In this document: positions 1 through 14,609 of the stretch, piece after piece
Numbering within the stretch: position 1 is the stretch's first letter
Layout of the letters: each line of letters starts with the position of its first letter
IMG/VR virus record: IMGVR_UViG_3300021082_000058
Coordinates: 1-43,614 of that record
DNA from: a virus
Taxonomy: Duplodnaviria; Caudoviricetes
Length of the DNA: 43,614 nt
Reading direction: 5' to 3' (one strand)
Notes under the pieces: model-generated
Database searches by the model: none
The model's input: only the letters and a program-made list of their open reading frames with translations
What the model was told of the DNA's origin: nothing
Translations under genes and position numbers: made by a program

Positions 1-2
1 CG

Positions 3-284
3 ACTGCGGGGGCGACGGCACTAGCACAAGCACTTGATCCACTTCAGAAAGCCATCGACGATCTACGTAGAGCTCAGTACGAAGCACAAGGACAAAAGAC
101 CCAAGTCATCGAGACAAGAGCTGACACGACTGATCAGAGGTCTGGAACCAGCACGACTACTGCTGTTGTAGGTGCTGTCATTGCAGCAATTGTTTTGTTG
201 CTAAGTGCTTATTCAGCATTCAGATCAACTGCAACACCAGATCCTGTGATCGTTCAGGTACCGACGACACAAACTACTCCATAG
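3..284 (+). CDS. partial (5'-truncated) coiled-coil plus C-terminal transmembrane protein, lysis-module associated
   Basis: Manually translated open frame TAGATALAQALDPLQKAIDDLRRAQYEAQ...AVVGAVIAAIVLLLSAYSAF...TTP, stop TAG at 282-284; not in ORF track because the start lies outside the window. Confidence 0.65.
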   Translation, partial: TAGATALAQALDPLQKAIDDLRRAQYEAQGQKTQVIETRADTTDQRSGTSTTTAVVGAVIAAIVLLLSAYSAFRSTATPDPVIVQVPTTQTTP

Positions 285-291
285 GAGAGAT

Positions 292-363
292 ATGCTCTGG
301 ACAATCCTTATCATTGTACTCATCGCTATAGGCGTTGTGTACGTTGTCAATCATCTACGGTAG
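292..363 (+). CDS. 23-aa single-pass membrane peptide
   Basis: GGAGAG RBS, ATG at 292, MLWTILIIVLIAIGVVYVVNHLR*; fills the gap between two genes exactly. Confidence 0.6.
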   Translation: MLWTILIIVLIAIGVVYVVNHLR

Positions 364-376
364 AGAGGAGGTGTAT

Positions 377-730
377 ATGTACCCCAAAGCCATCCTTGCT
401 ATTGTCGTGTCAGCTGCTGGCGCCCTTGCTGTGGCACTCGGTGCCGGTGCAACTGACTTCGGTGATATTGATAACAAGACCTGGTTGATCGCAGCGATTG
501 CTGTACTGGGTTCTGGTGGATTCGTGTGGCTCACTGAAAATGGGCCAGCAGCACCTGCGATCAAAGCAGTTCTTGCTTTCTTGACTGCTGGGATCGGTTC
601 AGCTGTCGTTGCTCTGGACGATGATGTATTCACGCGAGCAGAGCAGTTGACGGCGTTTGTAGCTGCAGTTGCTGCAACTGGATTGGTCTTCCAGTTCTCA
701 GGTCCAAAGGATACACCACCAGCACCATAG
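377..730 (+). CDS. holin-like multi-pass membrane protein
   Basis: GAGGAGG RBS before ATG 377; about 4 hydrophobic segments (two related halves); last gene before convergent terminator. Confidence 0.6.
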   Translation: MYPKAILAIVVSAAGALAVALGAGATDFGDIDNKTWLIAAIAVLGSGGFVWLTENGPAAPAIKAVLAFLTAGIGSAVVALDDDVFTRAEQLTAFVAAVAATGLVFQFSGPKDTPPAP

Positions 731-733
731 AGT

Positions 734-808
734 TCACGCGTCGGCCATACGCGTGACCACGCAGGATCCCGGGTTTCAGCTCTCCTTTACCGGGATCCTG
801 CGTTCTTT
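734..808. terminator. two hairpins between convergent arms, probable bidirectional terminator
   Basis: TCACGCGT/ACGCGTGA (734-756) and 14-bp stem ACGCAGGATCCCGG/CCGGGATCCTGCGT (759-803) followed by TCTTT. Confidence 0.7.
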
Positions 809-846
809 AGTTATATTTGCCTTCACAGACGCGAGCGTCTGACACG

Positions 847-866
847 AAGCACGGTAGGCCCATGCT
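847..866. repeat. 20-bp dispersed repeat, copy 1 (AAGCACGGTAGGCCCATGCT)
   Basis: Identical sequence at 15463-15482; both copies intergenic. Confidence 0.85.
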
Positions 867-931
867 AGTTCCTGGGATCGTACGTCCTTTGACAGACGAT
901 TTGATCTGACCCGCAAGACGTCGATTTCACG

Positions 932-3604
932 TTATTCCGCCCGCACGTCGATCTCGTGCTTGCATTCTCCCCAGGAACGCCCGTACACAACGTCAGCGAC
1001 AAAGGGGATGTTGTAGGTGAGTGGGTCGCCCAGCGAGAAAGGCGCATGATCGAGCGTCGGGAACGGACACCGAGCCCACTCTGGCAGTCGCTGCTCCATT
1101 ATGTTGCGCACGAGGTCACCTGTCTGTTGAATAACGCTGTCCTTGTTCTTACACTCCATTACGATCGAGTCGTGTACCGTGAAGAGGATGCGCTGTTTCT
1201 TCGGATCGAACTCTGCGTCCATGTGGATGAGCGCATTGAGTGTGAGTTGCGCTGCAAATCCCTGGATCGGTGAGTTAACGATCTGACGCTTGATTCCCGC
1301 TGAGTCATGCTTGAACGCGAGAGGCCACCTGCGACGATTGCCGAGAGGTCCTTCGACGTACTTGAGCTTGAAGCAGTACTCTTTGAGGACTTCCATCCAG
1401 GCGAACAGATCGACATAGCCTTCCTGGAACTTAGCGAAGTATGCTGCAATCTCATTCTCGCCCCACGACTTGCCGTACTGTTCAACCAGGTTGTCCATCT
1501 CAGGACCAGTCGCGATTGATTTCCACCCGCGTCCGTAGACGACTCCGAAGTTCATGCATTTGGCGAGGTATCGTTCGTACTTGGTGATATCCTTCTTAGG
1601 TTTTCCGAAGAGAAGTTCTGCCACTTCTTGATGAATGTCTGCTCCATTTCGATAGGCGTCGATGAGAACTTCGTCTTGCGAAAACAGACCAGCCACTCGA
1701 AGCTCCAGTTGAGAATAATCAGCTTCCAGTATGACCCAACCCTTGGTTGGTATGTAGGCTTTCCGAATATCGTATCCAACGTGTGAAACGTCCGGGATGT
1801 TTTGGAGATTCGGATTGGAAGAAGACAGACGGCCTGTCGCAGTACCGTGGAGATTGAAGTCACTTCGCACTCTCCCGTCTGAGTCAACTCGGTCGAGGAT
1901 CCCCTGAATGTACGTGCCGATGATCTTAGATTTAACACGGTAGGAGAGGATAAGGTTGATCAATTTCGCTGCTGATGGCATATCCTTACTGCACTGTCTG
2001 GCAAGCACCTTGAGCGTATCCGCGTTCGTCGTGACTTCTCCCTCTTCCCTCTTGTACGCATAGCGACCTACATCCTTCGGCATTGCGAGACCTAGGCCAC
2101 CCTCGTCAGTAGCGTTGTAGAGAAGCACCTCGACCTGTGCTGGTGAACCTGGATTGAATCCTTCTTCAGCCTTGTTAGGATTCATCTCAACCCAGTTGGT
2201 GTACTGCTTGACGAGTTTCCGGATCTGCTTCATCTCTGCATCCACTGTCTTTTCGAGCGTTACTTTCATCTCGTTCAGGTACTTCAAGTCGACAGGTGCA
2301 CCAGTCATCTCCATGTTAGCGAGAGCGAGAGATGCAGGTACAAGATATTTCTCATGGTGCGTGAGCAAGCGGAATGATTCGTCGTCTGCCTCTTTCTGCA
2401 GGATTGGATACAGACGCGCTGTCGAGTGGCAATCCTCACCCATGTAGCGCATCATTGCTTCCCACATGACCTCTTTTCTATCCGGGTCAGGAGCAGGTTG
2501 CATGTCCGCAGGTAGAGGTATGTAAGGCGCAACCACTGATACGTCAATGTCCCTTCCGACTTTCCTCCCACGCCAAAGTTCATCTGGTGGATTGACAGCC
2601 TGCCTCCAACAACTTCTTGCCTTCTCTGGATGTGCTTCGCAAAACTCTGCAATGTACGCTGTGCGTGCTGCATCGCCAACATCCTTCCGATAGTACTCCT
2701 CAAGCCAATCTTTCATCTTGACTGACTTCTGAGGCGCGTCAAAGTAGAGACGCTGCATGAGGTCAAGGCTTAGGTGTCGATAGCGATTGAACGGACGCTC
2801 ATCGAGTGCCCAGCCAATGAGCATGGTATCTGCCAGGGTCGTGAAGTTAAATCGTCCGAACTTTTTCCAGAGGTGCTGAACGTCGAATTTTAGATTATGG
2901 AAGACGAACGTGCCCTTGTACTTCTGGAGAAATGTATGTACTTCATGCCGGATAAGTTCTTGAGGTACGACGACTGCGTATCCTTGATCACCATCTGTGA
3001 GTGCACAGAATCCTATACCGAGGATGTCGGGCTCAACACCTGGCAGCCATGCCTTGTATGGAGACAAGCCTGTTGTCTCAATATCAGTGCCAAGGAAAGA
3101 CGCACCATGCAGGTCGCGCAAGAGGGAGAGATCTTTGACACGTTCTACCAGATGAATCTCGCAAGCAGGTTGTACCAGAGGTTTCTTATTCTCGATGAGT
3201 TTGCAGATGTCGAAGCAGATGTCTCTATAGAACTCAGGATCTTTGACCATTGTGGTGGTTGGGAACGTGACAATAGAGAAAATGCTTTTTCTACTTCCTT
3301 GAAGTTTATGGAGGTAGCCTCTACCACGGACCTTGCTGACAGTGATGCCTTTTTCCAATCCGAAGAAACATGCTGCAGCGACTGAACCAGAGCAGAGTAC
3401 TTTGTCGAAGGATCTTGCTGCATGATGCACCTTCTCTGTTTGTGCAAGCCACTGCTCAGGCTTGATCTTCTTCACATCTGCTTCTGACATGGTAGGAAAG
3501 ATAGAGACACTCGTCCACTCAACTCCGTACGCCTGGAAGATAGCGTCGAGTGTGTAACCTGCTACTGGGGTAAGAGGTCTATCTGTCAGGACAAGGATCT
3601 TCAT
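932..3604 (-). CDS. polA: family A DNA polymerase with 3'-5' exonuclease and N-terminal UDG-like domain
   Basis: ExoI DIETTG, ExoII HNLKFD, ExoIII YMGED; TATGRLSSSNPNLQNIP; motif A ADYSQLELR, motif B RYLAKCMNFGVVYG, motif C TVHDSI. Confidence 0.97.
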   Translation of the reverse strand: MKILVLTDRPLTPVAGYTLDAIFQAYGVEWTSVSIFPTMSEADVKKIKPEQWLAQTEKVHHAARSFDKVLCSGSVAAACFFGLEKGITVSKVRGRGYLHKLQGSRKSIFSIVTFPTTTMVKDPEFYRDICFDICKLIENKKPLVQPACEIHLVERVKDLSLLRDLHGASFLGTDIETTGLSPYKAWLPGVEPDILGIGFCALTDGDQGYAVVVPQELIRHEVHTFLQKYKGTFVFHNLKFDVQHLWKKFGRFNFTTLADTMLIGWALDERPFNRYRHLSLDLMQRLYFDAPQKSVKMKDWLEEYYRKDVGDAARTAYIAEFCEAHPEKARSCWRQAVNPPDELWRGRKVGRDIDVSVVAPYIPLPADMQPAPDPDRKEVMWEAMMRYMGEDCHSTARLYPILQKEADDESFRLLTHHEKYLVPASLALANMEMTGAPVDLKYLNEMKVTLEKTVDAEMKQIRKLVKQYTNWVEMNPNKAEEGFNPGSPAQVEVLLYNATDEGGLGLAMPKDVGRYAYKREEGEVTTNADTLKVLARQCSKDMPSAAKLINLILSYRVKSKIIGTYIQGILDRVDSDGRVRSDFNLHGTATGRLSSSNPNLQNIPDVSHVGYDIRKAYIPTKGWVILEADYSQLELRVAGLFSQDEVLIDAYRNGADIHQEVAELLFGKPKKDITKYERYLAKCMNFGVVYGRGWKSIATGPEMDNLVEQYGKSWGENEIAAYFAKFQEGYVDLFAWMEVLKEYCFKLKYVEGPLGNRRRWPLAFKHDSAGIKRQIVNSPIQGFAAQLTLNALIHMDAEFDPKKQRILFTVHDSIVMECKNKDSVIQQTGDLVRNIMEQRLPEWARCPFPTLDHAPFSLGDPLTYNIPFVADVVYGRSWGECKHEIDVRAE

Positions 3605-3831
3605 AGCGCCTCATCGAGAGTAGCGAGAGCGGTGAAGCCATTGAAGCCGGGATCATCTCCTGCGTGAGACTCAGGCATCGAGCATCCACAGTAGTGGTCG
3701 TGAAGTTCGGCCAGTCCGTCCACCACAGCCACGATCTGCGGCCAGCGTGGATCGTCAGCCAGATGTCCAACTGGACCATCTTCTACCCAAACCTTCGCTG
3801 GGTTCGCTTTCAATTTTTCTGATGCGCTCAT
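3601..3831 (-). CDS. hypothetical protein with HDHYCGC..H possible metal-binding motif
   Basis: ATGA overlaps at both ends (coupled to DpdA-like gene and polA). Confidence 0.7.
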   Translation of the reverse strand: MSASEKLKANPAKVWVEDGPVGHLADDPRWPQIVAVVDGLAELHDHYCGCSMPESHAGDDPGFNGFTALATLDEAL

Positions 3832-4670
3832 CTTGCCAGTGTCCTCATGTCAGTACCCTCTGCTGCTTCTTGAAAGAGCCAAGAATTGTTACGAGCGTAT
3901 TTCTTTTGGCGTGGTGTGAACGTCGAAGAGAAGTAGTAATGAGGCCTAGTGGGGTACTCGGTGTCTAGTGACTCGAGAAGATCCACACCTGCGAGTGCAT
4001 ATACGAATGGCTTTGCTGAATCAGTTGAACGTATCCACTTGTGCTTTGCAGCGATGACTTGCAAGTTGCGTAGGTTACGCATCCATCCGAGCATGTGCAC
4101 TGACATCTTAATTCCACTCTGTGCCAATGTCTCACGGATAGGAACAACATGTTCTTCTAGCAGTTTCAAGACACCTCCGTCCCATGCATCGTAGTCCTTC
4201 GACACGCCAATGACGAAGTCACGACGAAGAGAATATTTGCGAGCGCAGTATTGGTGTATCTGCACAAGGCAGTTAAGGCAGATCAACCAGTCAGATTCAT
4301 CTTTACCTTGAGGCACGTACATGAACGCAGGAGAGTAGGCATCCAAGATTTCGCGTGACCCTCCTTCGAACCACTCCTCGTGCGCAGCGAGACACGCTTC
4401 GATTGTTTTCTCTGCGTTGTCGAGTACATCTGGCACAACGATCTCTTGAGCGTCGAGTTCGAACCCAGCCTTGAGCAGTGATACTGGATCTTGCCCTGCA
4501 CCATGCTCATGTGCTGAATTGTCGAGGACGAGATACGCGCCTGACTTTCTCTGTGCTTTGTAGTGCCTCTTGTATGTTGGCTTGTCGAGGAGATGAGTCA
4601 ACAACAGATGGAATGGACCTGACCCGAATTCGTCAAGATGCTTGATCGGAGGAATAAGCGCTGCCTTCAC
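3828..4670 (-). CDS. dpdA: DpdA-like 7-deazaguanine DNA transglycosylase (TGT-like TIM barrel)
   Basis: TGT-like motifs LDNSAHE, PDVL, VPQG, IG, HMLG, RSTDSA; lies in que cluster; GTG 4670 overlaps upstream TGA (GTGA). Confidence 0.8.
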   Translation of the reverse strand: MKAALIPPIKHLDEFGSGPFHLLLTHLLDKPTYKRHYKAQRKSGAYLVLDNSAHEHGAGQDPVSLLKAGFELDAQEIVVPDVLDNAEKTIEACLAAHEEWFEGGSREILDAYSPAFMYVPQGKDESDWLICLNCLVQIHQYCARKYSLRRDFVIGVSKDYDAWDGGVLKLLEEHVVPIRETLAQSGIKMSVHMLGWMRNLRNLQVIAAKHKWIRSTDSAKPFVYALAGVDLLESLDTEYPTRPHYYFSSTFTPRQKKYARNNSWLFQEAAEGTDMRTLAR

Positions 4671-5440
4671 GACTCGCTCCATACTGAGTACGCAGTTGTT
4701 GGCATGAGGCCATCGTTGTAGAGATGCTTGATCTCCCTCTTCACGCTGGCGATGCATGTCTTGATTCCGAAGTAGCGTGCCCACTCAGCAAACCTGTCGA
4801 GGATCGAGATCATCATCCGTACTTCAGGTCCCAACTTGGACATGTCTGTCTCTACGAACTGACACTGTGGTGTCGGTGTCATTGCCCATGCGCGTCCGAA
4901 GGGCTTCTTGAGAACGTATGTCCGTTCAGGTCGCATCTGTATGAACTGTAGTTGGGGTGCTGAGATGCAAGATAGAGGAGCATTTCGATAGTTTGCGCAA
5001 CCGAGGCCCTCGACACCGACTCCGCGTCTAAAGGAAGTGAGAAAGTCACAGATAGGGTTAGCGTTTTGGTCGTTGGTATAGATGAGCTTTCTCTTTCCAT
5101 TAACGATCACAGTCCTCTCTTCGAACCCCTTTTGGTGCTCGACGTTGAGGAACTCTGATGGTGTGTAGTCGAGTGTGAACTTCTGGCAACATGCTGTGCA
5201 TCCAACAGTGCAGATAAACGTGCGGAAGAGAGATGGCGTTATAAGAACTTCACGTACGGGGGTGTCGTATGTGCGAACCCCCAGGAGACGCCCCGAGGTC
5301 AATCCCCGGGCCTGATAGGTGACCGTATGCGGGCTTAACAGCGCTATCTGTCCCAGAATCTTCTCCACTGAGTCTGCGTGCCCCACTGAGTTCTTCCTTG
5401 ATACCTCCAGGCGCCGTAGATCCTGGACCTTCTTGCTCAT
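4667..5440 (-). CDS. CxxxCxxCC cysteine-cluster metalloprotein (YkgJ/DUF3109-like); candidate preQ1-modifying enzyme
   Basis: CTVGCTACC, then CDFL, CANYRNAPLSC and CQF; coupled to DpdA-like gene; start 5440 has GAGG RBS but is uncertain. Confidence 0.7.
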   Translation of the reverse strand: MSKKVQDLRRLEVSRKNSVGHADSVEKILGQIALLSPHTVTYQARGLTSGRLLGVRTYDTPVREVLITPSLFRTFICTVGCTACCQKFTLDYTPSEFLNVEHQKGFEERTVIVNGKRKLIYTNDQNANPICDFLTSFRRGVGVEGLGCANYRNAPLSCISAPQLQFIQMRPERTYVLKKPFGRAWAMTPTPQCQFVETDMSKLGPEVRMMISILDRFAEWARYFGIKTCIASVKREIKHLYNDGLMPTTAYSVWSES

Positions 5441-5873
5441 GTGCGATGATCCTCTTAATGTACCAGATTGCTTTTTCAAGACTCTCCGTCCCTCCTTTGT
5501 GTCGCCAACGTAGAAGGTATTTCAGTGCGTTGCCTTCTCTGTAATCCAGATTGAACATCTCGATAAGGTCGATGACCTCGATAGGTCCATGAGTGTAGTG
5601 AGGTGGCGAATTAACGAGATCTATTGCCTCTTTGAAAGAGGAAGTGTCACCAGCAATCTCTGCTGTTGCAGTACCAGACACTACAGCTACTGGATGTGTT
5701 TTTGCTACAGTCGTTCCCACAACTCTGTAACCACGACGTTCGAGTTCTCTCTTTGCTTTGGTGTAGAGTTGTGTACGTTGTGGATTATCAGCAAGTTTGA
5801 GAAGAACTTTAATCTGTGTGTCATTCCACTTCTCCAGCATCTCTTGACTCGTTGCTATTTTTCCCATCACCAT
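5250..5873 (-). CDS. DUF3310 (SaV-like / T7 gp1.7-like nucleotide kinase) domain protein
   Basis: DLVNSPPHYT..IEVID..GNALKYLLR..KGG.ESLEKAIWY signature. Confidence 0.85.
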   Translation of the reverse strand: MVMGKIATSQEMLEKWNDTQIKVLLKLADNPQRTQLYTKAKRELERRGYRVVGTTVAKTHPVAVVSGTATAEIAGDTSSFKEAIDLVNSPPHYTHGPIEVIDLIEMFNLDYREGNALKYLLRWRHKGGTESLEKAIWYIKRIIAHEQEGPGSTAPGGIKEELSGARRLSGEDSGTDSAVKPAYGHLSGPGIDLGASPGGSHIRHPRT

Positions 5874-6159
5874 CCTGTATCACCTCCTCCATCACTGGTG
5901 GCACTGTTCCTACGTCTGGAAACTGACCAAGATCTTTGTGGAACGTGTCTCTCAATTCTTGATCGAAGCCCAACTCATACGTATGAGCCTCACGAGGGTC
6001 GATGATGACTAGCTTGTACTCAATGCAGACGTTCTCTTCATTGAGAACAGCGTAGAAGCCTACCTCACATCCATGGAACGTCGTCTTGTGAATTGTCGGA
6101 GGAACAGGACGAGGTTGTCCGAGAAGAGGAACTTCCATGTGACTTGGAGGAACACTCAT
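5821..6159 (-). CDS. hypothetical protein
   Basis: ATGA overlap with queC stop; 112 aa. Confidence 0.65.
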   Translation of the reverse strand: MSVPPSHMEVPLLGQPRPVPPTIHKTTFHGCEVGFYAVLNEENVCIEYKLVIIDPREAHTYELGFDQELRDTFHKDLGQFPDVGTVPPVMEEVIQDGDGKNSNESRDAGEVE

Positions 6160-6911
6160 GTTCTTTCCGATCTAGAGATGTTATGAACAACCACATTTCT
6201 CTCTGCTGTGTTTCCCTGACCAACATCTCTGTACTTATCGAACTCGTATTCAATTGGATCTTTGAGCCCGTTCTCTTTGAATGCCTCGAGGCGAGCAATA
6301 CACGTAGGACACTGTCCACATGCAGGGTCGCGGCCTTCATAGCACGACCTCGTAAGGTAGAGAGGAGCACCAAGTGTTGTACCAAGGTGAATGATCTCTG
6401 CTTTTGTCTTGTACGTGAACGGACACACTAGACGTACCTTGTGGTAGGTGCCAATGTAGATAGCGTTCTGCATCGCACCAATGAACTCTGGAGTGCAATC
6501 AGGGTACGCCCAGTTATGAGCATCTTCTCCATGCATACCTGCATAGATAAGATCTGCGTTCATGTCAAGTGCACCTGATGCTGCAATCGAGAGGAATGTG
6601 CCATTACGGTAAGGCACATAGGTAGGAGAAGGTCCTTCTGATGCTTGCAGTTCTTCATATGTGAGGTGTGGCATCTCAGCGTTTGGATTCATCAACACAG
6701 ATGAGCCTGCACCAAGAGAAATTGGTACCACATGGTGATCCAACCCATACTGAGATGAAATCAAACCTGCAGCATCCAACTCCATCTTTGAATGTCTTTG
6801 TCCGTAGTTAAAAGAGATTGCAGCAACAACCTCATCACACTGTGTCTTAGCGAGTGCGAGTGCAACACATGAATCAAGTCCCCCAGAGAGGACAACAACA
6901 GCCTTACTCAT
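6156..6911 (-). CDS. queC: 7-cyano-7-deazaguanine synthase
   Basis: VVLSGGLDS, FNYGQRH, TYVPYRN, YPDC, SCY..CGQCPTC; GGGGAG RBS before ATG 6911. Confidence 0.97.
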   Translation of the reverse strand: MSKAVVVLSGGLDSCVALALAKTQCDEVVAAISFNYGQRHSKMELDAAGLISSQYGLDHHVVPISLGAGSSVLMNPNAEMPHLTYEELQASEGPSPTYVPYRNGTFLSIAASGALDMNADLIYAGMHGEDAHNWAYPDCTPEFIGAMQNAIYIGTYHKVRLVCPFTYKTKAEIIHLGTTLGAPLYLTRSCYEGRDPACGQCPTCIARLEAFKENGLKDPIEYEFDKYRDVGQGNTAERNVVVHNISRSERT

Positions 6912-6997
6912 TTGCTCCCCTTCCATACTGCAACTGCATAGTAAGCTAGCGTCCACGCTTCAGTGCCGAGAACGAGTGCTACCCACTGCCAAGTCAT
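6908..6997 (-). CDS. 29-aa hydrophobic peptide
   Basis: MTWQWVALVLGTEAWTLAYYAVAVWKGSK*; ATGA overlaps at both ends. Confidence 0.6.
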   Translation of the reverse strand: MTWQWVALVLGTEAWTLAYYAVAVWKGSK

Positions 6998-7209
6998 TCA
7001 ACGGCCTTTGAATGATCCTTGGGACCACCTGAATACTGATCGAGCGCCTCTCCAAAGATCTCAGCAAGATCCTTGAGCCTTACAACTGCCTGACTACCTT
7101 CGATCTCTTCACTGGCCTTTTCCTGCACGCGGTTGAGAACCAAACCACAGAACGATGCAACTGCCTCTGATCCCTTGGGCAACTTGTTCACTTTCTTTTC
7201 CTTGGCCAT
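6994..7209 (-). CDS. hypothetical protein
   Basis: GAGAGGA RBS, TAATG overlap with folE. Confidence 0.7.
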   Translation of the reverse strand: MAKEKKVNKLPKGSEAVASFCGLVLNRVQEKASEEIEGSQAVVRLKDLAEIFGEALDQYSGGPKDHSKAVE

Positions 7210-7793
7210 TATCTTCCTCTCCTTGTGTGGCCGAGCAGGGTCAAGAATTCTTCGCGTGACCCTTCGGCAGGATCTTGAAAGTCACCTGTTACAGCAGACG
7301 TCGTCGTCAGCGTCCCAGGTGCTTGAACGCCGCGCATGGTCATGCAGAAATGCTCTGCTTCTACGACAACTATAACTCCTCTCGGCTCTAGTCCTTCAGT
7401 TAATGCATCACAGATCTGTCTTGTGAGACGCTCTTGAATCTGCAATCTGCGTGCAAAGACATCTACTACTCTCTTCAACTTGGACAACCCAACGACACTG
7501 TCTCTTGGAATGTATCCGATGTGTGCGTATCCTGCAAACGGCAGAAGATGATGTTCGCAAAGAGAGTAGAGAGGTATGTTCCACTGGCAGACCATTTGAT
7601 CAGCACCCTCTGCTGGGAATATTGTCCAAGGTAGTGGTTCACGATATCCACGTGTTAGTTCTTCGTACGCGCGTGCGACACGTGCGGGCGTCTCACGCAG
7701 TCCTTCGCGGGATGCATCCTCGCCTATAGCATCGAGGATCGTTGTCACAGCATCGCGCACAATGCGTTCTTTATAACTGGGATTAACGGCCAC
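7209..7793 (-). CDS. folE: GTP cyclohydrolase I
   Basis: [41 protein letters not shown]. Confidence 0.97.
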
Positions 7794-8232
7794 GTTTATT
7801 CAACTCTCTGAGACGTGTCACAATCTCAGCTCTCCTTTGGTTAACTTCATCAGGTAGTCCTTTGTGCCCTGTTGCTTGTGTCATTGGATTGATCTTTGAT
7901 TCTTGCATTTCGATAAGAAGTTCAGCTTGTTTTCTTTTGCAGATAAGATGTGGTAGAACTTGCTTAAGAACAACAAGAGAACTTCTGTCAGATATAATCC
8001 ACCTAAACTGCTCTTTCCACTTGGGATGGTCTTTATACTGCCCGCCACTTGCACCTGGGTGAAATCTATGAAGTGCTTGAATAGTCTCTAGACAAGTCAT
8101 CGTGACAAAAACAGATACTTGGTAAGAAGGACTCTTCCAGGAACGAGCTTTATTCATTCCGATTGTCAAAGAACCCTCACCATCAATGATTCCAGCGACA
8201 TACGCAACATGGGGTTTATCTTCCTCTCGCAT
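7783..8232 (-). mobile_element. free-standing single-motif LAGLIDADG homing endonuclease gene
   Basis: YVAGIIDGEGS motif, W/K..KQA tail typical of the family; overlaps queE end and folE start; flanked by ATAAAC direct repeat. Confidence 0.88.
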
Positions 8233-8983
8233 TGCCCCATGATAACACATGCATCTGTGGAAGGACACGAACACGTCTCATGCTCTGATCGTTGGCGAGT
8301 TTCTCCATGAGCCATACCATCTTGTCGAGAACCTCACTCCGAGTTTTTGAGAGAGGAAATGGATTGATTCTGTTTTCAACTTTTCCTTCTGGATTGCTAA
8401 CTGTGGGAAGGAAAGGATCTTCATTTCCAACTGACAAGAACAACTCGAACTGAGGGAACGTCTTGTGTACCCATTGCGCGTAGTAGTAATCTTCGTCGTC
8501 AAAGACAACCACCTTCAGGTACACAGCGTTGTCATGTCGACTGGAGAAGTGAGCGAGAAAGTCTTTCAGCACATCATGCCTTGTTGGATTTTGTGACGAT
8601 GGGGGTTTCGGTGATACACAAACCTCATCGACATACCCAAGCCAATCTCTCCACACTGTACCTTGTGTCTCAACCATCACTGAGTATCCGTCACCGATGA
8701 GGTACGCGGTCAAGAGGGAGAGATCAAGGAGTGCAGGATTGCCACCTGAATAGACAACCCATAACGCCTTGGAAGACAGTTGACGTACTTCCCTCCAAAT
8801 GTCTTTCTCTGTCTTCTGTGGCAACTGTGCAACGAGCTCAGGAAGAACTGCGTGAGGCGAGTCACACCAAACGCATCTGTAGTCACATCCACCAAAGCGG
8901 ATGAAGTGGCAGGGAGTGCCAATGCGGCGACCTTCCCCTTGAATTGTAGGTCCGAAGATCTCTGCAACACGAAAGCTCTTCAC
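8216..8983 (-). CDS. queE: 7-carboxy-7-deazaguanine synthase (radical SAM)
   Basis: EIFGPTIQGEG, CDYRCVWCD, SGGNP, VETQG, VSPKP, LPQMH; GTGA overlap with queD. Confidence 0.96.
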   Translation of the reverse strand: MKSFRVAEIFGPTIQGEGRRIGTPCHFIRFGGCDYRCVWCDSPHAVLPELVAQLPQKTEKDIWREVRQLSSKALWVVYSGGNPALLDLSLLTAYLIGDGYSVMVETQGTVWRDWLGYVDEVCVSPKPPSSQNPTRHDVLKDFLAHFSSRHDNAVYLKVVVFDDEDYYYAQWVHKTFPQFELFLSVGNEDPFLPTVSNPEGKVENRINPFPLSKTRSEVLDKMVWLMEKLANDQSMRRVRVLPQMHVLSWGNARGR

Positions 8984-9414
8984 GAGATCACGTACCGCGC
9001 CATGCACTTCGGTGTCTCCCACAGTTCAACCATTACAGAGTGTAGTTCAAACATCTCCATACATGTGTACGCGAGATACCTTGCCATGTTCTCTGCTGTT
9101 GGATTAAACGGAAGGATAACTACTCCTTCGTCAACCCAGAACTCTTTCGTGTTTGGAACTACGAGTGGATCAGCATTCCAGATGAGCATCCGGTGGTCCC
9201 ACTCGTTGACAAGTTCCTTCAGGTCACCGAAGTCAACAACGAATCCTGGAGGTTTAACGACGCCTGCAGCCATGATGTGCACTCTGTACGTGTGTCCATG
9301 CAAACGTGCGCACTTGCCCTTGTGTCCAACAATGCGGTGCCCTGCGTCGAATGTCATCTCATACGAGATCTCAGAATGATCTGGTAGCATGTCGAATGCC
9401 TCTCTAACGCTCAT
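8980..9414 (-). CDS. queD: 6-carboxytetrahydropterin synthase
   Basis: FDAGHR, C.RLHGHTY, VDFGDLK, DH, NPTAEN, LWET. Confidence 0.96.
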   Translation of the reverse strand: MSVREAFDMLPDHSEISYEMTFDAGHRIVGHKGKCARLHGHTYRVHIMAAGVVKPPGFVVDFGDLKELVNEWDHRMLIWNADPLVVPNTKEFWVDEGVVILPFNPTAENMARYLAYTCMEMFELHSVMVELWETPKCMARYVIS

Positions 9415-9848
9415 GCCACTGCCTCGATTGAAATTCCACCACGAGACTTCTGCGTGAGCACCACACGGGTATTCTCTTCTTCGCTACCTGTCACTTCGAT
9501 TACCTGGTCACGAATGAACACAGCGAGTGTCTCACAGAACAGACCTGGTGCGTTTCCACTCATCGTGTTCTCATGGAGATTGTTGAACCAGATCTTGAGA
9601 CTTTTCGACTCGATGAGTTTTGGAGAATCCTTCAGAGTGATCTTGCATGTGTAGTAATCAGGCTGACCGGTGACCGGACACTTGGCTACTACTTCGTCTG
9701 ATGTGTAGTGGACAAGAGTGCATCCAGGATTGTCGAATGTCTCTAGTCCAGTGTATGCACCCGAACCTTGAGATGAAAGCGCCGCAAATGTTGGCGGCGC
9801 CTCCACCCCAGATCCGAGGAACCGGTGTTCTTGTTCCCCGGAAATCAT
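9411..9848 (-). CDS. queF: preQ0 reductase, QueF (unimodular T-fold)
   Basis: CPVTGQPD catalytic motif, QueF motif ESKSLKIW, C-terminal RGGI. Confidence 0.88.
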   Translation of the reverse strand: MISGEQEHRFLGSGVEAPPTFAALSSQGSGAYTGLETFDNPGCTLVHYTSDEVVAKCPVTGQPDYYTCKITLKDSPKLIESKSLKIWFNNLHENTMSGNAPGLFCETLAVFIRDQVIEVTGSEEENTRVVLTQKSRGGISIEAVA

Positions 9849-10340
9849 CTACTTGAACTTCCTGGTCGAGCCTGTCTTCTTTGCTGTGGTCGCTGTCTTG
9901 CGCGTTGCTGTCTTCTTCGTACCCCCTTTGGTCGTGCCGTTCTCAGAAGCGAGCACTGCGACAGGATTCGACTGCAGACGTCCCTCGTATGTCCGAGGCT
10001 TGTCACAGACAACGATGCATGGCATGCCAGCAAGCTCAGGCTCAGTAACAAGCATCGTGTCTTCGTCGTAGTCGATCTCGATCTCATCTGCAGGAAGACC
10101 CAAGTTCTCGAAATCCTGCTTCATCCGAAACAGAGCACGGGGGCTCAACGACCAGATGATCCATGCCTTGTTGGATGCGCCTGGTGCATCTGTGAGCGTG
10201 AACTCTGCGTTCAGATAGTCGTACTTGTCGTCCTGAACAGCTTCTACGTACGTGACCTTCTCGATGATGGCAGGGTATTCACCCTTCTCCAACGGTTCGA
10301 TCTCCTGAACCTCTGAGAAGTCCACTGTGACTTTCGGCAT
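9849..10340 (-). CDS. single-stranded DNA-binding protein (DUF669-like) with basic tail
   Basis: VDFSEV..PLEKGEY.AII pattern; downstream of Sak4-like ATPase; GAGGAG RBS before ATG 10340. Confidence 0.7.
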   Translation of the reverse strand: MPKVTVDFSEVQEIEPLEKGEYPAIIEKVTYVEAVQDDKYDYLNAEFTLTDAPGASNKAWIIWSLSPRALFRMKQDFENLGLPADEIEIDYDEDTMLVTEPELAGMPCIVVCDKPRTYEGRLQSNPVAVLASENGTTKGGTKKTATRKTATTAKKTGSTRKFK

Positions 10341-10351
10341 ATCAATTCTCC

Positions 10352-11104
10352 TCAACTGTTGTATTGCAGAGCGTCGAGCAACTTGGTCATGGTTGGATCT
10401 TCGATTTCATCTGGTGCCTCAATACCCCAACCCGTTCTGACACCGATGCGGATCTTTGGGTAGTTCTGTAGGAGGAGCAACCTCTGCATGTTGCCATCAT
10501 CGTCCTCAGATAGTGCCAAGTACGACACCACAGACATCAACCCTGGGATCTCGATTGCTGCACGACCAGCAAGGTTGACTGTAGTGATCAAGCCCTCCTT
10601 TCTGTCTACGTCTTCCTTGTGGTGAGCTGTGTAGAACATGTGGAGTGGCAGGTCGCGGAAGTAGCGAACGAATCTACGCATTTTCACGAGACCTTCTCCG
10701 TAGTCGCCTTGTTCGATGATGTCTGGATTGACACCTTTGCCCTCACGCCTCTCCCTGTGCTTCTCAAGGATGTCTAGAAGCATGAAGATATGTGTCTCAG
10801 ACAATGAGTCGATGGAACCTGACTTGAAGCCCTCGTCGTTGCTAGAGATTCGCTCGAAGCCTTCATTCAGCGATTCCCAATCCTTGACCTCATGCCTCAC
10901 GAAATCCGTCCCGTAACCAGGCATCGTCTCCAAGACATCTTCAACTCCGCCCTCAAGGTCGAGACACAACATCGGTGCTGTTCGCTCATCTTGTGCTGCT
11001 GTACCCAAGAAGCGTGTCTTGCCATGCTTCGGAGGTCCGTAGATGAGCCCTTTGCACCTGCGGTTGCTTGAGGCTGCTGCTGGCTTACGACGAGGTCGTG
11101 CCAT
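10352..11104 (-). CDS. AAA_24 / Sak4-like ATPase (ssDNA annealing)
   Basis: Walker A YGPPKHGKT, LDLEGG, IDSLS, AH motif; SSB neighbour. Confidence 0.85.
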   Translation of the reverse strand: MARPRRKPAAASSNRRCKGLIYGPPKHGKTRFLGTAAQDERTAPMLCLDLEGGVEDVLETMPGYGTDFVRHEVKDWESLNEGFERISSNDEGFKSGSIDSLSETHIFMLLDILEKHRERREGKGVNPDIIEQGDYGEGLVKMRRFVRYFRDLPLHMFYTAHHKEDVDRKEGLITTVNLAGRAAIEIPGLMSVVSYLALSEDDDGNMQRLLLLQNYPKIRIGVRTGWGIEAPDEIEDPTMTKLLDALQYNS

Positions 11105-11454
11105 CAGTCCTTCTTCACAACCGGTTCGACTGACTGTTCGAAGTTGAGTTCGTGGGCATCAGCGAACACGAGACACCCTTTCAACTCGTTACCGCGAATA
11201 CGTGCCCATTGAAATGCACGCACGAATCCATCTTGCTCGAACCGATGAGCCCAGACATCAACGAAGTAGGTACCTTCGCCTTCCACCTCAGGCTCGCCAT
11301 CCATGTCTTTGAGTTCTTGGAGGAACTTCTCTTTGTCGTCGGACACGTCAGGCAGATCACCAACAGCGACGACTGGACTTCCTTCTCCCTCCAACTCAGC
11401 GACCCTCGCCAATGCTTCAGCGAGTTCAGCTTCCAACTCTGGTTTAGTTGGCAC
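11104..11454 (-). CDS. hypothetical acidic protein
   Basis: GGAG RBS, TGATG overlap with next gene. Confidence 0.7.
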   Translation of the reverse strand: MPTKPELEAELAEALARVAELEGEGSPVVAVGDLPDVSDDKEKFLQELKDMDGEPEVEGEGTYFVDVWAHRFEQDGFVRAFQWARIRGNELKGCLVFADAHELNFEQSVEPVVKKD

Positions 11455-11733
11455 TTACACTCCTTCCACTAGGTCGTATGTGTAGAGGATGTTGTCTCGG
11501 TTCACTGTGTCACGTGACACAGAAGTCTCTTTAAGTGTCCAAGCATTTGGATCTTGGTTGATTTCAGGTTGCACGCCGAGAGCATTAAACTCCGTGATGA
11601 AATTCTGCACTACTGAAACCAAGAATGCAGTATCTTCAAGCATGCCTCTCCAGAATCCAGGTGTAGCCAATTGTACGTATGGTGTGCCTAATGGACCTGA
11701 ACGGCTCGGAAGGTATGCAACTATGATCTCCAC
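11455..11733 (-). CDS. hypothetical protein
   Basis: GGAGGGAG RBS, TAGTG overlap with nuclease stop. Confidence 0.65.
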   Translation of the reverse strand: MEIIVAYLPSRSGPLGTPYVQLATPGFWRGMLEDTAFLVSVVQNFITEFNALGVQPEINQDPNAWTLKETSVSRDTVNRDNILYTYDLVEGV

Positions 11734-12824
11734 TACACTCCCTCCCACTTCTCTGATAGAACTTTCTTCGGAATCTCTGTACGCGGCTCAACAATGTCGA
11801 ACATTGTCTCCTTCAGGTAGTCAGGCTCGCCACCTTCTTCCATCGTCTGACAGATAGGAAGCACTGCACACATGGGACACAGACGCTGCGACGGATTCGG
11901 GTATGCACGCTCTGGCATGTTGATTGCCTTCTGCATATCCAGATACTCGTAGAACAATCTCTGCTCAAAGGACCACAACTGCTCTTCATTGAACACAACA
12001 GCATCACGTACGAAAAACTGAGACCATCCCTTGTCTTTAAGATATGCAAGGATGTCTTCGTACTCTGATGCATCGAGTCCATGTTCCTTGATTGCATCCA
12101 CATAGAGATCGTACGTTGTTCTCTGTGCCTTGTCCTGTGACAACGCCCCTGACTTGAGGAGTCGTGGTGGGACAGGTGGTTCCTTGATCAATCCATTGTG
12201 GACGAATCCGTACGGGATTTCACCTGTAAGACGCCAGTAGATGTAACAGTACCCAGTGCCCTGATCGTCAATGTCGAGTGCGCGTGCATCATACGCTGAC
12301 ACTGTCGTCTTGTGATCCCAAATCCAGATACGCTTCTTCTTGTCTCTTACGACAAGGTCGATAGCGCCAGACAAGAGAGGGAGACCTTCAACACGATCTT
12401 CACTCTGAGGATCAAGGATGTCTACCCAAGCACGTTCCTCGATGTTGACAGCAATAACCTCTTCAAAGTCGAACTCAGCGCCGTCATCGAATTGCTTGTA
12501 ATAGGTGAGGATACGCAACCCTTTGTCTCGCCAATCCCACCACTCATCACCGATACCTTGATCGTACAACGTGCCGTAGATTTCCTTGAGGGTATCGTTC
12601 TCCTCAGTCCAAGCTTTGTTAAACGCACGTTTAGCAGCTGCAAGGCTACGTTTGTTACCTCTGTAGTACGCCTCTAGCGCTTTATGAATACATGTGCCGA
12701 AGATCAGAGCCCATGCGACACGGTTCTTATGCGCGAGGCGTTCTATTGTCTCCAAGTACCAACGACGGCGGCAGTCACGGAAGGAACTGCGCTCTGTCAC
12801 TGTTGTATGGAAGCGTGCCATCAC
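11733..12824 (-). CDS. PD-(D/E)xK Cas4/RecB-like exonuclease
   Basis: FRDCRRRW, GTCIHKALE, GAIDLVV, IWDHKT, C-terminal CPMC..C. Confidence 0.9.
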   Translation of the reverse strand: MMARFHTTVTERSSFRDCRRRWYLETIERLAHKNRVAWALIFGTCIHKALEAYYRGNKRSLAAAKRAFNKAWTEENDTLKEIYGTLYDQGIGDEWWDWRDKGLRILTYYKQFDDGAEFDFEEVIAVNIEERAWVDILDPQSEDRVEGLPLLSGAIDLVVRDKKKRIWIWDHKTTVSAYDARALDIDDQGTGYCYIYWRLTGEIPYGFVHNGLIKEPPVPPRLLKSGALSQDKAQRTTYDLYVDAIKEHGLDASEYEDILAYLKDKGWSQFFVRDAVVFNEEQLWSFEQRLFYEYLDMQKAINMPERAYPNPSQRLCPMCAVLPICQTMEEGGEPDYLKETMFDIVEPRTEIPKKVLSEKWEGV

Positions 12825-12839
12825 GACTATGTTAGTACC

Positions 12840-13235
12840 TCACGCGCTGCTCTGCAAGCGCACATTCATGTACCAACAGCCTATGCAGATAGCATCAAGC
12901 TCATGCTTACTGAGATTTTTCATCCCCATCCTTTTCAACTCAACCTTCAAGTCGCTTGTAATCGGGTGGGGCTTCCAATCTGCTGCTGTGACATAGACAA
13001 TGATCTCTCCGTACTCAGATTCTGTACGTGCGATGAGTGCTGCCATCTCATCACCAAGAGGTCCACGAATCACAACTGGCTTCTCAACTACAACGTGCAT
13101 AGGGACACCTATGTTGCGGATGTAAAGAAACAGTTCGTTGAGGTCAGTTGCATTGCCATACTTATGCACGCGATCAGGGTCGTACCACGAAGCCCAACCT
13201 GTTGTGCGTCCAAGATCAAGAGTAAGGAGATACAT
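12840..13235 (-). CDS. RuvC-like (RNase H fold) resolvase
   Basis: LTLDLGRTTGWA, VVVEKP, HELDAICIG. Confidence 0.75.
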   Translation of the reverse strand: MYLLTLDLGRTTGWASWYDPDRVHKYGNATDLNELFLYIRNIGVPMHVVVEKPVVIRGPLGDEMAALIARTESEYGEIIVYVTAADWKPHPITSDLKVELKRMGMKNLSKHELDAICIGCWYMNVRLQSSA

Positions 13236-13552
13236 CAGAAGCGTCTAAACGCTACGATGTCTGTCCAGTGAACGAACAACGATCCATCCACCTCTGTAAC
13301 ACCAGAGAAGTAGATGAGATCTCCTCTCTGCCACTCCCACGATTCAATAGGTATGTCTTCCTCGTGAGTATGATCACCAGACATCTCTACGATTACACCA
13401 GATCTGAATTCCTGAGTGGTAGGGTCGCGTACGACAATCAGACCTGACTCATGGTCATCTTGTGCTTCGATCAGAAAATAACCATTGCAGGGATGTATGT
13501 TACCATCCCTTTCGATTTCTTCTAGCTGTGCCATCCAGCCTCCTTTATGCAT
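13235..13552 (-). CDS. GroES-like co-chaperonin
   Basis: IHPCNGYFLIE..ESGLIV..SGVIVEMS..GDLIYF..DIVA matches the Cpn10 pattern; start could be 13534. Confidence 0.65.
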   Translation of the reverse strand: MHKGGWMAQLEEIERDGNIHPCNGYFLIEAQDDHESGLIVVRDPTTQEFRSGVIVEMSGDHTHEEDIPIESWEWQRGDLIYFSGVTEVDGSLFVHWTDIVAFRRF

Positions 13553-13562
13553 GAGTAATCAC

Positions 13563-13660
13563 TGCGGAAGGGTGATCGCTGGCGACGAATCCAGAACGCC
13601 TACAGGGGCGCGAACCTGTTGGGCACGCAAGTACAACAGATTCCTTCCCACCCTTCCGCA
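13563..13660 (-). ncRNA. putative structured intergenic RNA (multibranch, 12-bp closing stem)
   Basis: TGCGGAAGGGTG/CACCCTTCCGCA outer stem with internal CGCC/GGCG and CTGTTG/CAACAG hairpins. Confidence 0.45.
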
Positions 13661-13668
13661 CTAACTAC

Positions 13669-13875
13669 TTATGGCCGTGATCCGATATCGTAACCGAAAG
13701 GCTCTTCCTCTATGTGCTGTTCTTCCCTGATACGCACAATCTCTTTCTCGATCTTGAGCCATTCCTTCGCCCAGTACTCTTCTTCGCACTCAGAGCAAGG
13801 AATCATTTCTGACTCGTAGTAAGGCCAATGACCTTTAACTACTAGATGAAACAGACTCTGTAGAAACCGTACCAT
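13669..13875 (-). CDS. hypothetical protein (CxxC)
   Basis: GGGAG RBS; 68 aa. Confidence 0.55.
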   Translation of the reverse strand: MVRFLQSLFHLVVKGHWPYYESEMIPCSECEEEYWAKEWLKIEKEIVRIREEQHIEEEPFGYDIGSRP

Positions 13876-14251
13876 GTTGCTCTCCCTTCACTCGTACGAC
13901 TACGTCAGTGACAACTGTTGCGGTCACCCACGCGCCGTCTTTGTGGGTCGTTACTTTCAGACCCATTTGATGTGCCACCCGTCGGAGTTTTTCTCTTGAG
14001 TAGTTACCAAGCCAGACATGTGTTGCTTTGCCCATCGTGTGGAACTGCAACGTGATAGAATCTCTAGAGGGTGAGAGCCGCTCCATAAAAGCCTGATTAA
14101 GCTGACTCTCGATGAACCGATCACCGAACTCTGACACTGACTTGCGCCAAGCATAGTACGCATGCTGGAACGGCATGTCAGAGGGGGAGATCAACTCACC
14201 TTCTGACTCTGAGAAATACAGATCCTGAGCGAGATACTCTTCGTCAGTCAT
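13835..14251 (-). CDS. hypothetical protein
   Basis: 138 aa, overlaps neighbours in operon. Confidence 0.7.
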   Translation of the reverse strand: MTDEEYLAQDLYFSESEGELISPSDMPFQHAYYAWRKSVSEFGDRFIESQLNQAFMERLSPSRDSITLQFHTMGKATHVWLGNYSREKLRRVAHQMGLKVTTHKDGAWVTATVVTDVVVRVKGEQHGTVSTESVSSSS

Positions 14252-14609
14252 CTGGAGTCAACACCGCTGTGATACTGACACGTTCGCCAGACACGACCTG
14301 GAGAACTTCATGATTTGTCTTTGCGAGCGCGACCAGAAAGACACCTTCGTTTGGCGCAATGCGCAAGACAATTTCTCCACCCTCTTCAGGTCCTTCAACG
14401 ACAGTGATGACCAAGAAATCTTCATCTGTCAACCTGCCATCGCTATGAGGCCTGATTGAGGCTCCAGGGGACAGCAAGTTCCGTCGCAGGTTACCCATGT
14501 GCTTCATTGGGCGTCCTGCTACAGCACTAACTGCTTCCTGCAGCCTGTCTGTATACGCAGCGAGAGTAGGATCATCAAGTTCCCACTCAACTCTGAAAAG
14601 GCCATACAT
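14244..14609 (-). CDS. 2OG-Fe(II) oxygenase (prolyl-hydroxylase-like)
   Basis: PHSDG (HxD), EGGE, HEV, GERVSI (RxS). Confidence 0.8.
   Translation of the reverse strand: MYGLFRVEWELDDPTLAAYTDRLQEAVSAVAGRPMKHMGNLRRNLLSPGASIRPHSDGRLTDEDFLVITVVEGPEEGGEIVLRIAPNEGVFLVALAKTNHEVLQVVSGERVSITAVLTPDD

Follow-up and report, generated by a model that had tools for sequence, protein, structure and literature searches.

Background

Bases of the 7-deazaguanine type are established as a shield of DNA against restriction enzymes (PMC10516641). Here we analyse a virus record of the Caudoviricetes (Duplodnaviria), IMGVR_UViG_3300021082_000058, in which a leftward operon encodes the enzymes of preQ1 synthesis, a predicted transglycosylase of the DpdA3 subfamily and an orthologue of DpdM, a predicted preQ1 N-methyltransferase. 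The window, i.e. the whole stretch of DNA analysed, is the entire record of 43,614 bases; it is estimated to be 83% complete, and terminase, portal and capsid genes are present.

Two groups of phages are described that carry mdPreQ1, the N-methylated form of preQ1, namely the Cellulophaga phage phiSM (DpdA1 with DpdM) and the Vibrio phages VH7D, phi-Grn1 and phi-ST2 (DpdA2 with DpdM). Like the window, they encode FolE, QueD, QueE and QueC together with QueF as well as a DpdM with eight Cys, and phiSM further shares with it a dpdM gene directly upstream of dpdA and a unimodular QueF. They differ from the window in using DpdA1 or DpdA2 instead of DpdA3, and in these phages no more than about 1% of G is modified (PMC10516641). 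In contrast, the DpdA3 phages so far measured, three in number, are fully substituted for guanine, and the only one of the measured phages that combines DpdA3 with QueF caps the amine with a formyl group (PMC10516641). This formyltransferase-type system resembles the window in its full preQ1 pathway, an amine-tailoring enzyme and a nearby PolA; however, it has a formyltransferase where the window has a methylase, so that the amine would stay charged in the window, its QueF is bimodular rather than unimodular, a P-loop kinase and a PRA-PH/MazG-like hydrolase stand in place of DUF3310, and the two DpdA3 proteins are 25% identical.

The nearest named DpdA3 group on our tree, a weak placement (SH-aLRT, the Shimodaira-Hasegawa-like approximate likelihood ratio test, 81), comprises Bacillus phage BSP7 and Weizmannia phage Youna2, in which dpdA3 abuts polA and is preceded by a P-loop kinase-like gene; the stretches of these phages that were examined contain no QueF or DpdM. 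A different base, 2-aminoadenine, is made with the enzyme PurZ in the Z-genome pathway, where the base is built on dGMP and a dGTP/dATP diphosphohydrolase, a host GMP kinase and a phage PolA take part (10.1101/2025.10.22.683976). The nucleotide route has been shown there, while here it is predicted from the genes; a likeness is that the PF18909-type N-terminal domain of that pathway fills the slot of DUF3310 in 4 of 39 relatives of the window. In Data S1 of Cui et al. 2023 (PMC10516641), DpdM accompanies DpdA1 (phiSM, Knocker) or DpdA2 (Vibrio phages), with no row combining DpdA3 and DpdM, and a literature search for DpdA3, QueF and DpdM together found no report of the three, subscription papers being largely out of its reach and the supplement of Cui et al. 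covered in part. What appears to be new is the DpdA3-DpdM pairing and the predicted high-level preQ1/mdPreQ1 genome; every enzyme family was already known by 2023.

Results

We tentatively favour a reading in which, through the operon, much of the guanine or the whole of it gives way to preQ1 and some of this preQ1 receives an N-methyl group (mdPreQ1), the exchange taking place on free nucleotides before replication. The product considered alone, i.e. preQ1 together with mdPreQ1 made by either route, we regard as quite probable. Stated most plainly, the gene content predicts heavy preQ1 substitution, with the methylated share left unstated. The genes that bear on this reading are the following:

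9411..9848, minus strand: queF, unimodular preQ0 reductase, 145 amino acids (aa); TIGR03139 E 3.2e-11, below cut-off
8980..9414, minus strand: queD, 144 aa; PF01242 E 5.5e-27, CARLHGH motif, NCBIfam model match below cut-off
8216..8983, minus strand: queE, radical SAM CDG synthase; TIGR03365 E 1.2e-74, over cut-off; GTG start at 8983, placed from the GTGA overlap
7209..7793, minus strand: folE, GTP cyclohydrolase I; PF01227 E 3e-68, TIGR00063 over cut-off
6156..6911, minus strand: queC, preQ0 synthase, 251 aa, without glutamine amidotransferase fusion; PF06508 E 3.1e-56, TIGR00364 over cut-off
5250..5873, minus strand: DUF3310 protein, T7 gp1.7 nucleotide kinase family; PF11753 E 5.6e-13, domain at about 5454-5615
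4667..5440, minus strand: dpdM orthologue, predicted preQ1 N-methyltransferase, 257 aa, eight conserved Cys (CTVGCTACC); tblastn, Cys alignment and fold match
3828..4670, minus strand: dpdA3, predicted 7-deazaguanine transglycosylase, 280 aa; TGT fold, DpdA3 profile and tree
932..3604, minus strand: polA, family A DNA polymerase, 890 aa; PF00476 E 4.7e-76

An earlier note, made from the letters of the sequence, had listed folE, queD, queE, queC, queF with intact CPVTGQPD and ESKSLK motifs, and a TGT-like gene as one cluster, and searches of Pfam, PHROG and NCBIfam bear this out; all the cluster genes that it named lie on the minus strand. The two motifs, the Glu and the RGG of the window QueF align with those of the QueF proteins of phiSM, Knocker and Pan1. 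The protein has the catalytic Cys and Asp, the E(S/L)K(S/A)hK(L/Y)(Y/F/W) motif and the C-terminal Glu and RGG of a unimodular QueF; its motif reads ESKSLKIW, with Ile where Leu or Tyr is expected, and it scores 43 bits with TIGR03139 against a cut-off of 86.9.

In the proposed pathway, GTP would be converted to preQ0 and then to preQ1 by FolE, QueD, QueE and QueC together with QueF, an established pathway whose enzyme families are all found here. DpdA3, for which the fold, the subfamily and the catalytic Asp were found, would then swap guanine for preQ1, a substrate suggested by the presence of QueF, and the gene neighbourhood points to dGMP or a related nucleotide as the place of the exchange. 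Phosphorylation of the product would fall to the DUF3310 protein of the gp1.7 family and/or to host kinases, and incorporation of the modified nucleotide to the PolA encoded alongside. DpdM, by orthology with the VH7D enzyme from which its activity is taken, would methylate the aminomethyl group, and the modification would serve to shield the DNA from restriction enzymes. From this combination of genes one would expect guanine to be replaced, at a high level or entirely, by a base whose amine stays free and charged.

The transglycosylase

The TGT-like protein of 3828-4670 is, on sequence and model comparison, DpdA3, and it is this identity that renders its pairing with DpdM unusual; the earlier note had not recognised the subfamily. 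Its model (pLDDT, the predicted local distance difference test, 96.9) has the TGT/DpdA fold that the note had expected: all 49 PDB matches listed by Foldseek are TGT or DpdA, and with VIA the top match is DpdA 7ui4 (Z 15.5, root-mean-square deviation 3.7 over 233 residues), followed by archaeal TGT (15.2), the first unrelated barrel scoring 13.7. The Asp motifs of TGT/DpdA (D-S/N-x, P-D, H-x-L-G and D-S) are all present, and D50, D81, H192, G195, D217 and S218 are invariant in 113 of 113 sequences and align with the DpdA1 and DpdA3 references; residues of the D50/D81/D217 type we take to be the catalytic and base-binding positions of TGT.

Profile comparison, with E-values computed at Z=1000, separates the subfamilies. 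A profile of five published DpdA3 members matches the window protein at E 3.9e-24, and one of six DpdA1 members at E 5.6; conversely, the profile of the window family matches all five published DpdA3 proteins (phiST, CP220, immuto, BSP7 and Ahp1; E 4e-19 to 4e-7) and none of ten DpdA1/2/4-type references (best E 4.3). The window protein nests among DpdA3, split from five DpdA1-type rows at SH-aLRT 99, in a quick tree of 56 rows whose inner branches have weak support and in which long branches come together. Neither Pfam nor NCBIfam recognises DpdA3 or DpdM, the published ones included, and searches of the PDB sequences with alignments of both proteins found nothing. Matches to the window DpdA3 were found in six phage records, including the immuto DpdA3 (E 3e-4) and proteins without annotation in Youna2 and MA9V-3. 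No longer fused form of DpdA3 was seen among 8000 candidates of 500-2000 aa, a weak test, as a fusion with DUF3310 would be shorter than 500 aa, and a complex prediction for DpdA3 and DpdM scored 0.01. In the loci examined, neither DpdA3 nor DpdM was seen in one ORF with a small domain.

Among cultured phages, unannotated DpdA3 genes were noticed in PV245944.1 (MA9V-3, with a DpdL-like gene and a kinase) and OM293949.1 (Youna2, with QueC), and an unannotated DpdM in ON968452.1 (Pan1). These phages are not listed in Data S1 of Cui et al. 2023 (PMC10516641), and are candidates for nucleoside analysis.

The DpdM orthologue

The earlier note had supposed the Cys-cluster protein to be DpdM-like, and comparison of sequences and folds indicates that it is a DpdM orthologue, so that the predicted tailoring is the known one and mdPreQ1 the expected product; a new derivative, the note's other suggestion, gains nothing from the comparison, as nothing sets the window protein apart from published DpdMs. 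A tblastn search of 50,697 phage records returned 21 matches, i.e. phiSM and six other Cellulophaga phages, twelve Vibrio phages (VH7D, Grn1 and ST2 among them), Knocker (gp4) and Pan1. The phiSM match (E 4e-11) is CEPG_00054, which Cui et al. 2023 call DpdM (PMC10516641); preQ1 N-methyltransferase activity has been shown for the VH7D orthologue alone (PMC10516641). Identity to characterised DpdMs is 24-30% (28% to that of phiSM). All eight Cys of the window protein (C77/81/84/85/131/148/158/193) align with those of phiSM (C34/38/41/42/92/102/112/150) and VH7D (C45/49/52/53/120/129/146/222). The CxxxCxxCC motif and the four further Cys form two proposed metal sites, and each Cys is kept in 90-92 of 92 homologues.

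The DpdM model (pLDDT 95.9) has three matches in BFVD (E 2e-13 to 2e-11), whose lengths of 214, 304 and 217 are those of the Knocker, VH7D and phiSM DpdMs, and which we infer from length to be these proteins; against PDB folds no match was found (Foldseek best E 0.18, VIA best Z 3.9). The assignment of DpdM to DUF3109 in Cui et al. 2023 came from HHpred (PMC10516641). By hmmscan DUF3109 (PF11307) matches neither the window protein nor the DpdMs of phiSM, VH7D and Knocker, and a weak match to the CxxCxxCC family PF03692 is common to the window, phiSM and Knocker proteins. The DpdM family is larger than published, with 450 clusters at 50% identity reaching E 0.001. DpdM-family domains were also seen fused to DpdA4 (DUF6610) in P0224, with a ParB_N domain between, and in P0328, and to DpdA1 in P0335, together with DUF3102.

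The pairing in related loci

When 96 related loci were collapsed at 90% DpdA3 identity, 57 clusters resulted, that of the window among them, and representatives were counted; 33 have 5.5 kb upstream, 39 have 2 kb upstream, and 34 were used for counts of small open reading frames (ORFs) and of the endonuclease slot. QueF is present in 31 of the 33, including all 17 that bear DpdM, one of which (L037) has only a 78-aa remnant. Wherever 1.5 kb or more of downstream sequence was available, polA follows dpdA3 (40/40 representatives), in 30 of them directly. No representative carries a DpdN label (0/57), and among the 22 proteins of the window region no formyltransferase (DpdN), ArcS or amidotransferase-fused QueC family was found, in a genome of an estimated 83% completeness.

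In 14 of the 33 representatives (e.g. L020, L022, L027, L030, L032, L060, L065, L066 and L101) DpdA3 and QueF occur with neither DpdM nor DpdN nearby, which predicts uncapped dPreQ1 at high level or a tailoring gene that goes unrecognised. A GNAT acetyltransferase adjoins queF in two DpdA3+DpdM clusters (L046:3812-4471 and L048:5961-6740) and is a candidate for N-acetyl-preQ1 tailoring. A YhhQ/Vut_1 precursor transporter occurs in six clusters (L040, L045, L046, L048, L049 and L064), five of them with no folE in the vicinity; in L048 nothing but QueF, DpdM and DpdA3 is left near the transporter, which suggests preQ0 salvage. The complete 52-kb record G009 (L052) has QueF, QueC and DpdA3 in its cluster and no FolE over the cut-off, and on that account would depend on host precursors.

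Substrate of the exchange

The interest of the operon rests mainly on what DpdA3 acts upon. The route by which DpdA3 phages reach 100% substitution is puzzling because DpdA3, unlike other DpdAs, is inactive in the E. coli DNA assay (PMC10516641). The route on free nucleotides is suggested by the DpdA3 neighbourhood, whose layout is that of pathways building the base on dGMP, such as that of the Z genome. As a control we used DpdA1 (the best 80 of 269 loci plus phiSM and Knocker, giving 68 clusters, 60 with enough flank), against 92 loci of published-type DpdA3 (26 clusters, 22 with flank), and Pfam was run on the unlabelled neighbours of at least 75 aa (382 proteins in 225 clusters). A kinase-like gene lies within 2.5 kb in 19 of the 22 published-type DpdA3 representatives (17 by Pfam, 2 by a Walker A motif) vs 0/60 for DpdA1, and a pyrophosphohydrolase-type gene (MazG, PRA-PH or PF18909) in 14/22 vs 1/60. 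In the clade of the window, one small helical nucleotide-associated domain is found within 2.5 kb of dpdA3 in 30 of the 39 representatives with 2 kb upstream, vs 1/60 for DpdA1: DUF3310 in 9, DUF6378 in 8, an Nmad1-like domain in 8 (a label resting on two weak matches), PF18909 in 4 and MazG in 1, with no row having two. The T7 gp1.7 protein matches PF11753 at E 4.5e-23 and the window DUF3310 protein pairwise with 37% identity over 68 aa (E 9e-5), which places the latter in the gp1.7 family, a point missed by the earlier note, with kinase activity as a prediction only; gp1.7 phosphorylates dGMP and dTMP (PMC11897194). Free ADG nucleoside has been seen in CP220-infected cells (PMC10516641). The neighbourhood thus hints at exchange on free nucleotides.

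Several observations weigh against this reading. Twelve of the 22 published-type representatives belong to one lineage, outside which the kinase occurs in 7/10. The hidden Markov models of the small domains were built from the same loci in which they were counted, and profile comparison of four of these domains gave hhalign probabilities of no more than 6%, too weak to establish that they are homologous. DUF3310 is widespread in phages without a 7-deazaguanine cluster, and the domain alone is no proof of pathway membership. The five genomes examined, that of the window and those of four relatives that are complete or nearly so, gave no match to an AAA_18 kinase or to MazG, and DUF3310 is absent from all four relatives. 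One of the four carries PF18909; the other three, G005, G006 and G009 (L033, L036, L052), are in clusters without a small helical domain near dpdA3. Host kinases could serve, in which case the genes would prove nothing. Full substitution is itself extrapolated, as the DpdA3 clade of the window shares only some 25% identity with the measured DpdA3s. Polymerase adjacency, found in 8/22 DpdA3 and 31/60 DpdA1 representatives, is alike in both and was rejected as a discriminator.

The main alternative is the published model (Cui et al. 2023, PMC10516641), in which all 7-deazaguanine marks are proposed to be post-replicative: DpdA3 would follow the polymerase and trade guanine for preQ1 in completed DNA, DpdM would methylate the amine there, and the small helical gene would be an ordinary passenger of the replication region. 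That the closest solved fold is a DNA-acting DpdA (7ui4) speaks for it, as do the basic charge of the window DpdM (+4.3 per 100 aa), the fusions of DpdM domains to DpdA1 and DpdA4, which fit action on DNA, and a DpdM 51% identical to that of the window that occurs with a DpdA1-type gene in L294. It leaves unexplained the link of DpdA3 with kinases and deoxynucleoside triphosphatases, which is absent beside DpdA1, and DpdA3 is more acidic than DpdA1 (medians of -2.0 and -3.6 vs +0.35 per 100 aa), a weak point. Furthermore, co-expression of DpdM cuts the total of preQ1-type bases in DNA about 25- to 300-fold and leaves preQ0 insertion unchanged (Table 2 of Cui et al., PMC10516641); consumption of free preQ1 by DpdM would fit this better than methylation of DNA. 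We consider the published route possible, if somewhat doubtful for this operon, and the choice between DNA and nucleotides is close to even.

Exchange on free nucleotides can be extended, in what we judge an unlikely form, to a large uncultured clade in which every G would be charged preQ1 or methyl-preQ1 made before replication on dGMP, DpdM would act on the free base or nucleotide, one of four interchangeable small helical proteins (DUF3310, DUF6378, PF18909 and Nmad1-like) would act as kinase or as the partner that removes dGTP, and the genome would have a dedicated PolA to copy it; if true, this would overturn the published post-replicative view and give a job to several DUFs. The compact operon, with its pathway, DpdA3, DpdM, gp1.7-like protein and PolA, allows DNA and nucleotide substrates to be compared and offers a way to the methyl donor of DpdM, and a PolA accepting aminomethyl-deaza-dGTP would help to make functionalised DNA.

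Extent and kind of methylation

DpdM may contribute little or nothing, leaving plain dPreQ1, or the DpdA3 clade of the window may not be one of full replacement, so that modification stays low; we hold this to be rather improbable. DpdM is an accessory gene, since it is patchy on the quick tree and missing from 16 of the 33 representatives. In three DpdM phages mdPreQ1 stands to preQ1 as 212 to 3790, 35 to 816 and 44 to 668 (PMC10516641), i.e. about 4-6% of the preQ1-type bases, so that methylation may be minor here too. The 3' tail of the DUF3310 ORF, 55 aa long where the tails of relatives have 2-13 aa, overlaps the start of dpdM by 191 nt (5250-5440); a stop has probably been lost in the window lineage, and a sequencing error is unlikely because L009 and L010, which have the same sequence, are identical there. 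On the other side, the frame and the eight Cys of the window dpdM are intact, most of the 92 DpdM homologues show 60-75% identity with 97-100% of the length covered, and dpdM lies directly upstream of dpdA3 in 17/24.

That the protein adds something other than one methyl (a second methyl or another group), giving an undescribed base, is very unlikely: identity to characterised DpdMs is low, the fold is without a solved structure and Cui et al. describe neither a methyl donor nor a mechanism (PMC10516641), but phiSM and VH7D DpdMs are just 25% identical and both phage groups carry mdPreQ1 (PMC10516641), the Cys set and fold are the same, and the window operon has no extra tailoring enzyme. In L045 (7586-9011) dpdA3 is directly preceded by a tandem pair of full-length dpdM genes that differ from each other, a candidate for dimethylation or a second product.

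Other genes of the operon

The operon is a replication operon with the order exonuclease, Sak4-like, ssb-like, queF, queD, queE, endonuclease, folE, 71-aa and 29-aa ORFs, queC, 112-aa ORF, DUF3310, dpdM, dpdA3, 76-aa ORF and polA. Genes overlap at 13 of the 14 junctions between the ssb-like gene and polA, at eight of them by the 4 nt ATGA or GTGA; the GTGA overlap of the Cys-protein and TGT-like genes is real, and was rejected as the sign of special coupling that the earlier note had seen in it, because overlaps are the norm here. The remaining ORFs are:

7783..8232, minus strand: LAGLIDADG-motif homing endonuclease-like ORF, free-standing, 149 aa, not a pathway gene; phrog_5046 E 2.6e-21, YVAGIIDGEGS
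6994..7209, minus strand: 71-aa ORF of no family, without Pfam or PHROG match; in 4/34 representatives
6908..6997, minus strand: 29-aa hydrophobic ORF of no family; seen only in copies of the window genome (L009, L067)
5821..6159, minus strand: 112-aa ORF of no family, without Pfam or PHROG match; in 6/34 representatives
3601..3831, minus strand: 76-aa ORF of no family; of 57 representatives, the window's own copy is the only one to have it

Given this distribution, the suggestion that the ORFs of 76, 29, 71 and 112 aa are pathway members is not supported, and the 76-aa ORF, said to lie inside the cluster, falls outside the range 3828..9848 given for it. The LAGLIDADG ORF, overlooked before, occupies the slot between queE and folE in 1/34 representatives, the window's own copy. 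It ends KRGR-stop and queE ends ARGR-stop, and its end overlaps the start of folE, as if the insertion had duplicated the 3' end of queE; an Rfam scan of window positions 1-14000 found no family, and hence no sign of a group I intron next to the endonuclease. The window PolA scores far below the DpoZ cut-offs, and palindromic 6-mers in the window have a mean observed-to-expected ratio of 0.76. Upstream in the same leftward region lies a small 2-oxoglutarate-Fe(II) oxygenase-like ORF (14244-14609, minus strand; PF13640 E 5e-5).

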